Shown one piece after another: positions 53,546 to 60,166 of a stretch of DNA of 64,000 nucleotides; position 1 is the stretch's first letter; each line of letters opens with the position of its first letter. A program made the translations under genes and the position numbers. Below the pieces are notes generated by a model, which saw nothing but the letters and a program-made list of their open reading frames with translations, was not told the DNA's origin and did not search any database. Source of the DNA: Octopus vulgaris (taxonomy: Eukaryota). The stretch spans positions 58,342,001 to 58,406,000 of the forward strand of contig OX597820.1 in the NCBI GenBank assembly GCA_951406725.2, given 5' to 3'.

Positions 53546-56500
53546 CCTGATAAAAAAATTAATTGCGACAAACTTAAACAGTCGTTATCAAGAATTTAAT
53601 TTGTCAGATTTTTATCTGGTGGAAAAACTCTTCCGAAGCTTTCACGAGCTTATAAGTCGATTTCTTTTGTTGCATTATAATTGCCTCAAAAATGCTAAAA
53701 GAAATTCTACATTCTTTTTAGGACACCATTTTATTGCAAGCAAAATCCCCAGAATATCTAACGATTAGATAAACAATAGTTTTATAATTGCCATCCCTAT
53801 GGAACTACAAAATACCTGCAGTGGTTTGACTCTAAGAATACTGATCTAACAGATGAATATCTTTATGTTTTTATGCTTCTATTTCGATGCTTATTTTGTA
53901 TATGTGAAGTGGCTAGCTGGCCTTACAATTACGTATTAAAACTTGGGCGAACCGAATATGCAACTTTGTAAACATTGATCTAAGGTCACAGATTTTAAAA
54001 GGAGATATATATTCGATTGAATCGTTTCCCACTATATCACTGGCACATATGCTATCGGTGGCTGAAAAGCACAGTTGATCCCAGTAAGATTCGAACTCAA
54101 ATACAAAAGAACAAAACTAGAGTATTGCTAGCCATTTCGTCTAACGTTAGACATTTTTTAGCTGTCCACTCCCCCAATGAATAAACATTTATAGGAAGGG
54201 TGTGGTATAATCGATTGAATCTTTTTACAGTTTATTAATGTTTGCTATTTTATCGATCCAGAAGGATGAAATGCAAAATCGATCCAGATGAAAAAATGCA
54301 AAATCGATCCCAAGGCGATTTGAACTCGCAACATGAAGAATTATAACAGTCTCTAGAAACTTTTTGTTTTCACTGGCGTTCTATTTTTGCTGTTCACCAC
54401 CCGTGACCATGCACATAATGATTTCTCAATAATAATTCAGTTTCATCCACTGAATTATTATTCAATAAAGAAATCATTACGTGCGAGGTCATGGGTGGTG
54501 AACGACGAAAATGGTTGAAAGCATAAAACAGCAGAAACCAAAAAGAGAAAAGGTTAGAATAAAATCCACTACACCAAAATTACAAACAGTATTCTGCAAT
54601 ACTTGCAGTCAGGATTGTGCCAATATCTTAGGTTTAAATCCCGCGAGAAAACATTGTTGACGGATTCCCTCACAGCCATAAAAAAGGAGAAAATTCACTG
54701 GCACTGTGTGGTTAAGAAACTTACTTTGCAACGACGTGGTTTCGGATTCAGCAGAAGACACTTTGGTAGCCATGTGGTTTCGGCTATAGCAGAAGACACT
54801 TAGGCAAGTGCCTTCTGCTATACCCCACCGCACCGATAAATACATTGTGAGTGGGTTTATTAGATGGAAACTGTGGAGGACAGTCGTGTGTGTGTGTGTG
54901 TGTGTGTGTGTGCTTGACCACCACCTCGTTTGACAACTGCTGTCTTCTTCTTCTTCCAATCAGGACCCACGCCATTAGCCACAAAGAATAATCTCTAACC
55001 CGTGCCTACTCTAAGCTACTAAGAATGCGTGTGGCAACTTGAAGATCCACCCACCATATGCGTTGTTATCCTCATTCCATAAACGGTGGCTTTTTAACGG
55101 GTAGAGAGCTGAACTATCCTGGGGTACAGAGGATTCGCAATCTAGAATAGAGTCTGAAAGTTTACCACACCATTGTGGGTTACACCATGGTTCCCCTGCT
55201 TTGTGGAAAAAGTAGGAAGAAAGAGTGAGAGAAAGTTGTGGTGAGAGAATACAGCGGGGTTCACCACCACCACCCTGCTGGAGCTTCGTAGAGCTTAGGT
55301 GTTTTTGCTCAATAAACATTCACAATGCCCAGTCTGGGAATCAAAACTGCGTTCTTACGACTGCGAGTCTGCTGCCCTAACCATTGGGCCATTGCACCTC
55401 CTGACAACTGCTGTTGGTTTCTTTACGACCTCTGTATCTTAGTGGTTCGGCGAAAGACACCAACAGAATAAGTACCGGACTTAAAAATAAGCACTAGGGG
55501 GTGGGGATCGAGTGATTCGACTAAAAAGCCTTCAAAACAGTACCCCAGGATGGGCATATTTGAATGACTGAAACAAGTAAAGGATACGAACTACCCATAT
55601 TCACAAACGAATGATAGCCAAAATGAAGGAGAAAGAATCGAGAACATAACAATATCAGTACCGGATAATGTCAATCAGGTGACGATGTAAAAACTAGGCT
55701 ACGGATTAAATCTACCACAGAAGAACTGAAATAGTTCCCACTGACAGATTTCCACAGTTTCCTTTTCTTAAATTTCACCCATAAGGCTTTGGCTGGCTCG
55801 AGGTTATGGAAACATAGATAACACTTGTTCTGTTGTAGGTGCCGAGTAATGATGGTATTGAGATGTATTGAACCTGAAGCCATATAATTGCAAAACGAAA
55901 TTCTTAAACATGCAGCCATACATCCATTGCTTTCCCATTGTGCAAATTTGATTAACGCCAGTACTAATTATGGTGCTTTTCCCCGCTTTTTTTATTAGCT
56001 ATTTATTAGCTATTTTAAGACAGCAAGGGTGAGAGTAGAAAGAATGTGCGTGTATGTATGTGTGTGCGCGCTGCGTTATGAACAATATTGTAATATTGCA
56101 AAAAATAACGAGACGGAAAATTTTCTTTCGAAAATAAAAAAGCAGACAGTAATAGACAACTGATGAAAGGATTAGACGAGCACACCTATACAGGGGCTTT
56201 CTTTTCATTTATTGGGAACATCCCTTTGTCCATGTATATCGATTTGGGGTGTTATACACACACACGCGCGCTTGCACACACACACACACACATATATATC
56301 TTTTACTCTTTTACTTGTTTCAGTCATTTGACTGTGGCCATGCTGGAGCACCGCCTTTTAGTTGAGCAAATCGACCCCAGGACTTATTCTTTGTAAGCCT
56401 ACTGGCTTTGTAAGTTACGGGGACGTAAACACAACAGCATCGGTTGTCAAGCGATGTTGGGGTGACAAACACAGACATACAAACATATACACTCACATAT

Positions 56501-56590
56501 ACATATACATATATATAATGTAACCGCGTGTGTACCGTTGGCGATTTTTTTTCTTCCGTCTCCCCTTCTCTGGATCTTTCCTTTTCCTAT

Positions 56591-56625
56591 GTTTCTGACG
56601 AAGAGCTCCGCTCAAAACGTAAAAC
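56591..56625 (+). ncRNA. Mutated hammerhead core in a second copy of the same element (~56515-56730)
   Basis: GUUU-CUGACGA-A-GAGC-UCC-GCUC-AAAAC-GUA-AAAC; GAAA is mutated to AAAA. Flanks are similar to 42885-43080 and 23222-23395. Confidence 0.55.
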
Positions 56626-56724
56626 CCTCCTTCTTCCCTTCCTCCCTGAGCGTCCAATAATACTATATTTGTTCCACGTCCTCGCGTTGTTGTGTTTTCT
56701 CTTTGTGTTTTCATGTTTGGATTA

Positions 56725-56768
<44 letters not shown>

Positions 56769-56911
56769 TACGACGGGCTTCTTTCAGTTTGCGTCTACCA
56801 AATCCACTCACAAGTCTTTGGTCGGCCCGAGGCTATAGTTGAAGACACTTGCCCAAGGTGCCACGCTGTGGGACTGAACCCGGAACCATGTGGCTGGTAA
56901 GCTAGCTACTT

Positions 56912-58978
56912 TATTTCATAAAATTTGTCATCATAGACAGTACACAGAGTGTGTAGCTTTGCGGGCTGGACAAACACATTAATGAATGAAAATGAAATAG
57001 AATGAATAAATAAGAGACGAAACCCAACACCCGCCGATTGGATTTTTCTCGAAAACATATTTTCTTTTTTTAAAAATCAATATGAGGTTTCAAACCTCTT
57101 ACAAGAAGGAGGCACTAAAACCTCTTACTTAACATGTTTTTTTTTAAAACACACAATTGAGGTTATAAACCACTACAAATAATACAATAAGATGAGGTTT
57201 CAAACCCTATAACGAGGGTCTTTCACTCCTACTCTTCGATATAACCATCGATATATTCATCATTATCTTCAATGCCGCTTGATTTCCTGTATCCCACCAT
57301 TTCCCATGCCTCACTCATATAGGACATGTAAGTCGTGTAAGGGCCACCCGCCCATATGCGACACTCCTCCCCAAATCCTTTAAGCCTTTCCCACAGGGGA
57401 AACCTTATGACCTCCACAGCTATGTGCGGAGAACATTCGAGATCCCGTGTGAAGGGCATATCTACTGTCTCTTTATGTTCTTCTACTATTTTTCCACCTC
57501 CCCGCCCTTATAGAAAAAGATAATTAATTGATCATCTTTAAGGGTGGGGGTGGTTTCTTCTAGCGTGGGTGGCACAACTTCGGGACATGCAGACGGCACA
57601 TCATCTCCCCGCTGAGATGACCCGTTCTTCTTCCTTCTTTTTTTCTTTTCTTCCTGACTTCGGGAGAGTGGAGCTCTTCCGCTTTGTCCGGAGACGCTCC
57701 CCCGCCTCCCGAAGCCTTAGGTTCCTTCGGCGGGCAACAATAGTTGCCCGCCTTCTTCCTTTTTGATCTTTTTTCAGTTGCGGAGGCTGAAGCCTCCTCG
57801 ACCACATCCACCTCTCCCTTTGACCAGGTAGGGGAAGTGGCATCTAGTGACTGTTCCAGGACCTTACCATGGTCCTGGGAGCAGTTCCTTTTAATGTGGC
57901 CTGGCTGCAGGCACGAGTGACACTTGGGGGGACGTCCCTCAAGTATCACCGGATACCTGCTGCCAGCCATTTTCAAGAAATCTGGAAAAACCAGATCTGT
58001 TGCAGCCGATGGGGTCCACAGGGTCAAAATCGCTTTTGACCCTTCCCAATCGACCGCCGGCAATACCCTTACTATTAAGAGCCTGGGCCCGCCATCCCCC
58101 TGTCCCCGTCGGATGGTATCTTCAATCCAATCCGCTTCGGTGCTTGGGGGTAATCCACATACCCAGGCTCGTATTAATTTTCTTCCACAATATGACGGAA
58201 GGAACAGAATTTCCTTGCCTTCTAAAGGCTGACTCACAAACTGGCGAGCCTTTTCCCCGTTGTCAAACAGCAACCGTACGGTTGCATGTCTGACACCACG
58301 CGATATATATTTTAAAGAGGACAAATATTCTTTAAGTTCATTTTTTATTACTTGTTTTGGGAAGACGGTGATGGAATTAAGAACTTTAGAATAAGTTCTA
58401 AGTACCATCGTCTTCTCCTCCATATCTTTTAACCACTGCTTAGGCGGGTTAATTTCCCACTCTAAGACAGAGTTTTTCTTTTTAAGTTCCTTCTCTGCCA
58501 TGTCAAAAAACAGTTCAAAAGTAGTTCAAAAGACAGTCTGACAAAAAACTAAACCGAATGAAAATAAAACAAAATAAAAGAGGAGAGGAGGAAACTGAAA
58601 TTAAAGTAATGAAAAGAATGAACCAAAATTTAGAAAGAAAGAAAAAATAGAAGGGAAAAGTAAAAGAAAAACCTCACAAATAGCACAGACAGGGAATCCT
58701 TTGTATAATACTCCAAAAAGGTAATCCAAACAAGTAATCCAAATGGCTTATTCTTATTTTTCTGGCGAGATACGCCCAGTAGAATTTACAAAAAGAATTT
58801 TCAAGCAAAAATTCTCAATTCACCGTTACGGTGATGAGAACCCAGTATTTTGCTCGCTATAGCGAGCCATAATTGACAATTTTCCTTTTGTTCTTTTTTT
58901 CTATTCACGGAGTCGAAACTCACATCTTCTCACTGTAACAGTCCAGACCAACTAGTGTTGCATTCTGGTTAACCGGAA
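56912..58978 (-). mobile_element. ORF1-only L1/Tx1-like non-LTR element (~2.07 kb) with 15-bp target site duplication
   Basis: TSD gtaagc(t/a)agctactt at 56897-56911 and 58979-58993, splitting a SINE. The 5' end starts TTCCGGTT, a ~480-nt 5' UTR precedes the gag-like ORF, and the 3' end finishes at aataa(a). No EN or RT coding found. Confidence 0.82.
57560..58501 (-). CDS. LINE ORF1/gag-like nucleic-acid-binding protein (CCHC zinc knuckle)
   Basis: 313-aa ORF containing RYPVILEGRPPKCHSCLQPGHIKRNC (CX2CX4HX4C) followed by a basic low-complexity region. It probably continued to 57229 through two frameshifts (...GSSQRGDDVPSACPEVVPPTLEE...KIVEEHKETVDMPFTRDLE...). Confidence 0.85.
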   Translation of the reverse strand: MAEKELKKKNSVLEWEINPPKQWLKDMEEKTMVLRTYSKVLNSITVFPKQVIKNELKEYLSSLKYISRGVRHATVRLLFDNGEKARQFVSQPLEGKEILFLPSYCGRKLIRAWVCGLPPSTEADWIEDTIRRGQGDGGPRLLIVRVLPAVDWEGSKAILTLWTPSAATDLVFPDFLKMAGSRYPVILEGRPPKCHSCLQPGHIKRNCSQDHGKVLEQSLDATSPTWSKGEVDVVEEASASATEKRSKRKKAGNYCCPPKEPKASGGGGASPDKAEELHSPEVRKKRKKEGRRTGHLSGEMMCRLHVPKLCHPR

Positions 58979-60166
58979 GTAAGCAAGCTACTTACCACAC
59001 AGCCACTCCTACGCCTATAAATTCTTTCTAATATTGGCACAATGTCAGCAGATTTGTGGGGAAGTGGGAAAATCCATTACATCGACCCCAGTACTTGACT
59101 GGTACTTATTTTTCCGCCCCCGAAAGGTTCAAAGGCAGAATCACACCCTGTGGAATTTGAATTCAGAACGTAAATCGCCAGATGAATGACGCTAAGCATT
59201 TTCGCCGACGTGCAAATGATACTGCCAATTCACCACCTTATTAACCAATAAATTAATTTTAGGTTTGTTTCTGTCTTCTCATATTTGCCAGCAAAAGTTT
59301 TCAGCCGTTGCGTTAAATATTTCTTTCTTTAAGTTTACTAACATTTCATATCTCTTCTTAATATCTACCCCATAGCCACCACCGTTACCCACCTTTTCTC
59401 AAATTCTACTGAATTTACTTAATGAATATAATAGTAATATACTAGTTCGAGTATAATCTTTACTCTTTTACTCTTTTATTTGTTTCAGTCATTTGACTGC
59501 AGCCATGCTGGAGCACTGCCCTTAGTCGAGCAAATCGACCCCGGGACTTATTCTTTGGAAGCCTAGTACTTATTCTATCAGTCTCTTTTGCCGCTAAGTT
59601 ACTGGGGACGTAAACACACCAGCATCGGTTGTCAAGCGATGTTGGTGGGGGGGGGGGGGACAAATACAGACACACACACACACACATATATACATACATA
59701 CGATGGGCTTCTTTCAGTTTCCGTCTACCAAATCCACTCACAAGGCTTTGGTCGGCCCGATGTTATAGTAGAAGATACTTGTCCAAGGTGCCACGCAGTG
59801 GGACTGAACTCTTAACCATCTGGTTGGTAAGCAAGCTACTTACCACACTAGATTTTGCAATAAATTATGCACACAGTAAAAAAGAAAGAATGTAAATTGG
59901 AAAACCTATAGAATCATAGAACTACGGTCATGCTCGAGTACCGCTTCCAGGAGTTTTCAACAATCATATCAATTATCAATCCTGGTAATTATTTCAGTCT
60001 TGCGCTGATTTTTATTGATCTCTGTTTATCGAATGGTTAATTTAGCTTCTGAATATAACGGATGCATCTTAAATGGATACTGCTAGATGCACCGTTTTAC
60101 ATCAGCAGACCCACACACACAGACACACACAGACATACACACACACACACACACAGACACACACAG

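Follow-up and report, generated by a model that had tools for sequence, protein, structure and literature searches.

Non-autonomous long interspersed nuclear elements (LINEs) that encode only the protein of the first open reading frame (ORF1p), such as HAL1, HeT-A and Ag-Sponge, are known from the L1, Jockey and CR1 groups, as described in the accessible parts of PMC5753468 and PMC5786205. The target-specific Tx1 clade, as far as the available text of PMC4494074 presents it, includes Tx1 in Tx1D, Tx1-Mar with SINEU in Mariner-N4_AMi, Tx1-9_AMi in Harbinger, and Keno, Kibi and Koshi. Partial texts further describe tandem arrays of R1 that arise at the 5' target-site duplication (TSD; PMC2718515) and, for R2, junction variants that are passed on through a heteroduplex of cDNA and target (PMC3774820). 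Here we analysed a 64-kb stretch of the Octopus vulgaris genome (contig OX597820.1; the whole stretch is called the window below), in which a 2.07-kb insert interrupts a short interspersed nuclear element (SINE). We conclude from sequence comparisons, with a probability of roughly 0.87, that this insert is a full-length though decayed member of an ORF1-only family (family A) at one nucleotide of the SINE head, likely copied in trans by the endonuclease and reverse transcriptase (EN and RT) of a Tx1-like LINE that uses the same site. We refer to such ORF1-only elements as passengers and to the LINE as the helper.

An earlier, sequence-only reading of this locus had proposed a 2.07-kb element with a single CCHC-knuckle ORF, lying between 15-bp TSDs in a SINE, and most of its anatomy was recovered (Table 1). 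The insert and its 15-bp flanking repeats are present, with one mismatch between the repeats, as are the 313-amino-acid (aa) ORF with its one knuckle, the 5' end, which in the window reads TTCCGGTT (a second subfamily begins 10 nucleotides (nt) further on), and both proposed palindromes of the 5' untranslated region (UTR). Two such palindromes arose in only 13 of 2,000 UTR shuffles, and they are exact in 11/30 and 13/30 copies. Two points needed correction. The 'three tgaggttwyaaacc motifs' of the 3' UTR exist but number four, and are imperfect palindromes, that is, predicted RNA hairpins (0.04 expected per shuffle); the flanking target copies of the proposed TSD exist as well but are probably not wholly target-derived, since the left copy likely carries donor bases. 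The insert has no poly(A) tail and terminates in ...GAAATA, running into the AA of the target. An LTR (long terminal repeat) retrotransposon or provirus was rejected on the lack of terminal repeats, domain matches to zf-CCHC only, the 15-bp flanks and the 5' truncations.

Family A is multicopy with constant ends, as had been supposed. A DNA search of the genome (2.8 Gb) gave 2,523 candidates, of which 40 were scored; besides the window copy, these included 22 near-full-length family-A copies, 90-94% identical and each forming one continuous match of ~2.0-2.1 kb. The target lies at the 3' end in 29/30 fetched copies and directly at the 5' end in 25/30, and no family-A copy examined has room for EN/RT. 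The two frameshifts of the window ORF are A-run slips for which slippage and assembly error are indistinguishable. Across 40 copies the lengths of these A-runs change independently of each other (both as in the window copy in 10, both open in 7, mixed in 13, other in 10), which rules out a family-wide or programmed frameshift. In younger sister families the ORF occurs naturally intact, at 409-418 aa with the C-terminal domain included, which matches the ~420 aa obtained by frameshift repair, so the window copy is simply decayed.

The same comparisons support the proposal that the element targets the SINE. The occupied junction, AAATA followed by AAGTAGCTTGCTWAC, occurs exactly 1,080 times in the genome, against 0 for the control, and the empty site occurs as 53,949 exact 33-mers, which puts occupancy near 2 in 100, the two counts not being like for like. 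A 3'-end pattern blind to the target gave 77 genome matches; among the first 30 checked, the target was present within 3 mismatches in 23 and with a small indel in 2, while the remaining 5 showed partial matches of 5-9 nt and represent near-cognate non-SINE sites. Together with the flanks of the fetched copies, these results establish the SINE head as the true target, at one nucleotide. In 4 units a private target variant is repeated in both flanking copies, and 5'-truncated inserts of 37-323 nt lie at the same base; the insertions were therefore independent.

The search for an autonomous LINE sharing the 3' end, suggested by the sequence-only reading, was successful. The helper, found behind a passenger array, is 5.44 kb long, has the same flanks as the passengers and shares their last ~45 nt with a stem-loop. 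Its ORF1 carries a CCHC knuckle (zf-CCHC, 21.4 bits) and its ORF2 contains Exo_endo_phos, RVT_1 and zf-RVT. The family is young, because neither ORF is interrupted in one copy (L129) and identity among many RT copies stands at 98-100%. Five other copies (L085, L127, L128, L130, L131) are 99% alike yet frameshifted in ORF1, some at homopolymer runs, through either RT slippage or long-read error. Among solved structures ORF2 is nearest to L1 ORF2p (E 8e-67); no L1 ORF1p match was found for ORF1, which has the CCHC knuckle instead. A CCHC knuckle in ORF1 is a feature of the Tx1 clade. By its features (two ORFs; an APE endonuclease, RT and C-terminal zinc motif; a CCHC ORF1; a repeat as target) the helper appears Tx1-like, a placement that comes from these features rather than from a tree with named references. 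Relatives whose RT is 73-76% identical to that of the helper insert at other targets: a young autonomous one (L132-L134, L139, L144, L145; RT 76% to the helper) ends in AATAAAGAAATA and inserts in (CT)n microsatellites, and L138, L140 and L146 have further targets and tandem pairs.

Across 50 tails, 95% of 200 cells of the 3' stem-loop are paired and 12 cells, counted by sequence, changed on both sides, a result reached in 0/500 shuffles; 12 of 61 tails (short, ambiguous or near-duplicate) had been left out of this alignment (A5). The variable stem pair, T-A in the window family versus C-G in the helper, is Watson-Crick in 73 of the 77 genome matches (24 C-G and 49 T-A, by hand count). The shared site and the covarying stem-loop make this EN-RT LINE the likely helper, and the supposed mobilisation in trans by an L1/Tx1 partner thereby gains a plausible agent. 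An antisense match of 7 nt or more to the target core occurs in 38/61 distinct tails, which represent two lineages, compared with 7% of shuffles; the motif, 7-10 nt long, is present in most of the tails, helper and passenger alike, and none was seen by eye in tails from those helper relatives that use other targets. As an obligatory guide it was rejected, because it is missing in family M, an unrelated ORF1-only family, and in several further tails; since family M is without it, the motif is not required for targeting.

Several lines of evidence indicate that the passengers lead a long life of their own. We read all 85 exact junctions of contig C1. Passenger-type ORF1 was found in 44 units, one of which ends in family M, and ORF2 in 16 units; among the 25 units without an ORF1 N-terminus, the tail is of passenger type in 16 and of helper type in 2, and 7 are unassignable (L237, with only 232 nt upstream, was classed by its tail). 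ORF1-only elements or tails thus make up 60/85 and the helper type 18/85, with at least 15 different 5' ends. The sequence-only reading had allowed for EN/RT between the ORF and the 3' UTR of other copies; none of the 44 ORF1-only-type units carries it. In a tree of 27 ORF1 clusters, a split with support 100/100 sets 21 passenger clusters apart from family M and the 5 ORF2-linked clusters (midpoint root, no direction claimed; stop-free ORF1 stretches covering at least 150 profile positions). Passenger ORF1 is 24-34% identical to helper ORF1, the 5' UTRs of the passengers are unrelated to that of the helper, and the passenger 5' part and ORF1 do not fit an origin from the helper by internal deletion. 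Over aa 1-204 the ratio of nonsynonymous to synonymous substitution (dN/dS, by Nei-Gojobori counts, rough for saturated pairs) is 0.05-0.33 in all 21 family pairs, with dS often >1.5. The separate clade, the absence of ORF2 and low dN/dS with saturated dS argue that ORF1p was retained over a long history in which ORF2 was lacking. By these comparisons the passengers are an old lineage rather than a recent internal deletion of the helper, and an ancient deletion from an extinct relative would still fit.

The C-terminal domain of ORF1, singled out earlier as unrecognised, is intact in the sister families and is real, fast-evolving and swapped between families. All intact passenger families have it, at 17-84% identity and dN/dS 0.24-1.03. 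For families B/F and B/G, dS is 2.0 and 1.6 in the N-terminal part and 0.17-0.18 in the C-terminal domain, and these discordant halves indicate exchange between families. A model predicted from 28 natural sequences (predicted local distance difference test, pLDDT, 71) has three strands and four helices. Pfam gave no match to the domain, the best 150 of 170 database representatives included none whose best stretch reached it, and Foldseek returned nothing at E 0.001 (best E 0.15); the best VIA result (Z 5.1, root mean square deviation 3.2, 71 aligned) was among ferredoxin-like folds, a common arrangement only. The domain is therefore predicted to be a small generic alpha/beta module with no named match, with RNA or partner binding as candidate roles. 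In helper ORF1, too, a linker is followed by a terminal segment of ~75 aa, so the passenger domain may not be truly 'extra'; the two showed no similarity (hhalign probability 0.4), and the helper model was unusable (pLDDT 51). At the N-terminus, a weak match to an RNA recognition motif (RRM) was found in family M only (E 0.013), on which an RRM-like N-terminus is presumed.

The 5' junctions are not symmetrical. Position 13 of the target has two common variants in the SINE. Among 25 solitary young units (a set of 26 rows with one doubtful pairing, L178), the left copy has A in 25/25 and the right copy A in 21 and T in 4; the left/right bases of 25 family-A units are T/T in 23, A/A in 1 and T/A in 1. 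In all five discordant units it is the left copy that bears the family base, and one extra T is present at 7/37 young left junctions. This asymmetry and the extra T exclude faithful target duplication as the source, and the last bases of the left copy likely derive from donor RNA. Any donor-derived part must be short, because the upstream SINE flank is not homogenised, and the uniformity of that flank gives no support to an RNA that starts at the SINE's 5' end and replaces the whole head. The complete 5' ends are likely due to an RNA starting inside the target copy, with the cDNA annealing to the cut top strand; short length helps too.

Passengers and helper also stack. Arrays reach 8 units when mixed and 7 when homotypic; at G000:C1:223689000-223709000 (L247, L089, L067, L085), one SINE holds a run of seven family-B units and, after it, one helper. 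For family B, 22/35 B-type 3' junctions (14/27 loci) stand directly before another element's 5' end, far above chance with only about 2 in 100 sites occupied, and for C-type junctions the exact SINE remainder comes next in 134/158. Family A is mostly solitary and is a downstream member in 3 mixed arrays. Array neighbours tend toward similar age. B-C pairs were considered as a fixed moving composite and rejected, as the partners' best matches do not pair up. HeT-A forms head-to-tail arrays, to which the passenger arrays are alike. Sequential, R1-like insertion at the 5' target copy would explain stacking if occupied sites were strongly preferred; a single event with template jumps from end to end would fit as well. 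Further, and on the doubtful side, passenger RNAs may compete for one SINE-targeting helper by carrying target bases at the 5' end and the antisense core in the 3' tail, features that would aid target capture and end-to-end RT jumps; trains would then enter as one event, with family B a specialist and the C-terminal domain a module under conflict.

We propose the following cycle for an ORF1-only family copied by a same-site LINE. Transcription would start from a promoter in the element's own 5' UTR, and the ~420-aa ORF1p would be translated and coat its own RNA. ORF2p of the helper would bind the 3' stem-loop and nick the bottom strand between GTGTGGT and AAGTAGC, with reverse transcription primed at the target AA. 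The top strand would be cut up to 15 nt downstream and, if the RNA begins a few bases inside the target copy, the cDNA end could anneal to the overhang, giving complete 5' ends and writing donor bases into the left copy. A usable site would be left at the 5' side of each insertion, allowing head-to-tail stacking and the exchange of 5' UTRs and C-terminal halves. The best reading of the C-terminal domain's fast change is that passengers compete for one helper.

Other histories could produce repeats at a shared site. Had one SINE and its insert been amplified together, through the SINE's mobiliser or segmental duplication, the shared site would be a matter of descent and the insert passive cargo, which would agree with the same SINE flanks in nearly all copies and with a left target copy that follows the family. 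This history is hardly credible in view of the variety found at the one base (the many 5' ends, an EN-RT LINE and truncated pieces), private target variants on both sides in 4 units, SINE flanks that differ among copies, and 5/30 target-blind ends in near-cognate non-SINE sites. Truncated copies also bear on DNA-level homing, in which ectopic gene conversion from filled to empty SINEs spreads the insert, unequal crossing-over builds the arrays and retrotransposition acts only at the start: 5' truncation with intact 3' ends and microhomology junctions, the covarying stem-loop and the near-cognate sites are marks of target-primed reverse transcription, and the upstream SINE flank is not homogenised. 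We consider homing very improbable on these grounds, even with a left target base that follows the donor, homotypic arrays of up to 7 units and mosaic ORFs in its favour. Finally, passengers might have arisen time and again by internal deletion from an autonomous LINE that shared their ORF1 and either escaped our sampling or died out only recently. Internal deletions do occur (91-nt and 1.2-1.4-kb units) and our searches score best candidates only, but passenger-type ORF1 is joined to ORF2 in none of the 44 C1 units, all sampled ORF2-linked ORF1s fall outside the passenger clade, and young families with intact ORFs are separated by saturated dS with low dN, so that this origin is very unlikely.

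Several observations nevertheless weigh against our preferred reading, that of an old ORF1-only lineage copied in trans by the same-site helper. The similarity between helper and passengers is confined to the last ~45 nt, and the covariation of the stem-loop counts sequences, not events, with few events behind it and mainly at one pair. The hairpin motifs are absent from 19/45 passenger rows (mostly family B) and 16/16 helper rows, and as a whole the 3' UTR shows no folding advantage over shuffles (z -1.64). An ORF open over its whole length was seen in none of the 30 family-A copies read. At the target, the upstream SINE flank is no more uniform than young empty SINEs (0.018 vs 0.013 per site), and of 40 variant positions within target bases 1-12, 36 are one-sided, which is expected from decay and lends no support. 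Our sample consisted of the top 150 ORF1 matches, 131 RT matches and one contig, in which an autonomous element with passenger-type ORF1 could be missed.

Table 1. Features of the insert, its host SINE and a neighbouring empty SINE, in window coordinates
Feature	Position	Strand	Remark
ORF1-only non-LTR retrotransposon, family A	56912..58978	-	2,067 bp; full-length but decayed
5'-side copy of 15-bp target	58979..58993	-	AAGTAGCTTGCTTAC; last bases likely donor-derived
3'-side copy of 15-bp target	56897..56911	-	one mismatch
Host SINE head upstream of insertion	58994..59015	-	first 22 nt
Rest of host SINE	56299..56896	-	with (TA)n tract and unrelated stretch near 56520-56730; from comparison with empty copy 59464-59848
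5' UTR	58502..58978	-	477 nt; family-specific
Perfect palindrome, 5' UTR	58852..58867		16 nt
Palindrome with 7-bp arms, 5' UTR	58820..58834		15 nt; junction point of subfamily with other 5' UTR
ORF1, open part	57560..58501	-	313 aa; conserved N-terminal region, CCHC knuckle, basic low-complexity linker
Single CCHC zinc knuckle	57875..57925	-	aa 193-209; Pfam E 0.004, under curated cut-off
A-run with first frameshift of window copy	57633..57645	-	length differs among copies
A-run with second frameshift of window copy	57486..57495	-	length differs among copies
ORF1 C-terminal domain	57229..57533	-	about 85 aa and acidic tail, split over two frames, both other than that of the open part
3' UTR	56912..57228	-	317 nt
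Four hairpin motifs of GAGGTT-loop-ACCTC type	57084..57208	-	57194-57208, 57159-57173, 57109-57124, 57084-57098
AAGCTAC	56953..56959	-	antisense to target-site core
Terminal 4-bp stem-loop common to insert and helper	56926..56939	-	TGTC/GACA in window, TGCC/GGCA in helper
Neighbouring empty copy of host SINE	59464..59848	-	intact target at 59827-59841; 850 bp from insert

Three empty copies of the target SINE are found in the window (13450, 43664, 59841), and no further passenger or helper copy was detected within its 64 kb. A tRNA nature of the SINE head was not detected by ARAGORN, nor by Rfam at gathering score; the SINE has candidate A/B box-like and CORE-like motifs. Insertion of a tailed SINE into its own head was rejected, as at most 1/85 C1 junctions (L238) looks similar, although the junction pattern may miss such copies. 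An Octopus CORE SINE, OR2, is listed in the available part of PMC4758252. Mini-inserts of 35-91 nt are present at the target (L192, L227, L181, L159, L161), of which L192 retains both ends of a family-C element around an internal deletion, and at L211 two element 3' ends lie tail to tail, inverted, between two SINE remainders.

Among the passengers, a family-A subfamily (L028, L029 and three more matches starting at query position 148) has another 5' UTR, joined inside the 15-nt palindrome, and in L220 a C-type ORF follows a G-type 5' end. Contigs from four sequencing runs, presumed to be of RNA, cover a young sister element, an observation given no weight in the argument here. The first bases of families A, B, C, D and M look like promoter motifs (ACTTCCGG, TGCGCATGCG, TGACGT), presumably those named ETS, NRF1 and CRE, which suggests putative captured internal promoters at these 5' ends. 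Family M is a second, unrelated ORF1-only family at the same target (L074:509-1987, L068, L073), ~1.5 kb long, with a 408-aa ORF in L068; since its ORF1 clusters with ORF2-linked proteins, ORF2 was seemingly lost at least twice. The nearest database protein to the passenger ORF1 is a relative from Octopus sinensis, XP_029652367.1, with others from Octopus bimaculoides and Argonauta.

These elements would reverse the usual relation between LINEs and SINEs, with the SINE as a landing pad of >50,000 sites. The ORF1-only lineage appears to have lasted to synonymous saturation and outnumbers its helper about three to one on C1, which makes it a testable question why a non-autonomous element retains ORF1p and whether ORF1p favours its own RNA for a foreign ORF2p. 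The system is tractable because it offers intact natural helper and passenger copies, a one-base target and an RNA signal of about 45 nt, and it might find use as a sequence-specific APE-type insertion enzyme. For annotation, 2-kb passenger ORFs can pass as uncharacterised host genes, as with the relative in Octopus sinensis.

In the literature we found no account of these families, a single-base target in a SINE head, a SINE-targeting Tx1 element or an ORF1-only radiation; Repbase, Dfam and supplements lay outside the search and may hold the families. The available part of PMC13282606 lists L1-Tx1 families without targets, and a term search in the accessible text of PMC9115989 returned no Tx1 or HAL1. 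As in HAL1, HeT-A and Ag-Sponge, to the extent that the parts at hand of PMC5753468 and PMC5786205 describe them, the passengers encode ORF1p only and would depend on an autonomous LINE. Unlike in those accounts, the probable partner here is a target-specific Tx1-like LINE, with a single-base target, no poly(A) and a shared stem-loop. The passengers further differ from those elements in forming a clade of many coexisting families with ORF1 so distant from that of the helper.

Resemblance to R1 (PMC2718515, in part) lies in its 14-bp TSD and in tandem arrays built at the 5' TSD, and resemblance to R2 (PMC3774820, in part) in an RNA with upstream target sequence that gives uniform 5' junctions and propagates junction variants. 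In contrast, R1 and R2 as presented there belong to other clades, have an essential target in tandem ribosomal DNA and form arrays of autonomous elements. With the Tx1 clade, in the portion of PMC4494074 available, the octopus system shares an APE-RT LINE that targets another repeat, a ~15-bp TSD, non-autonomous passengers at the same target and tandem insertions that sandwich the TSD; the sister family of the helper ends in (CT)n, as in Kibi. The octopus target differs from those described there in being a SINE head rather than a DNA transposon, LTR element, small nuclear RNA gene or microsatellite, and the passengers in being protein-coding ORF1-only elements rather than SINEs, with specificity at one base.

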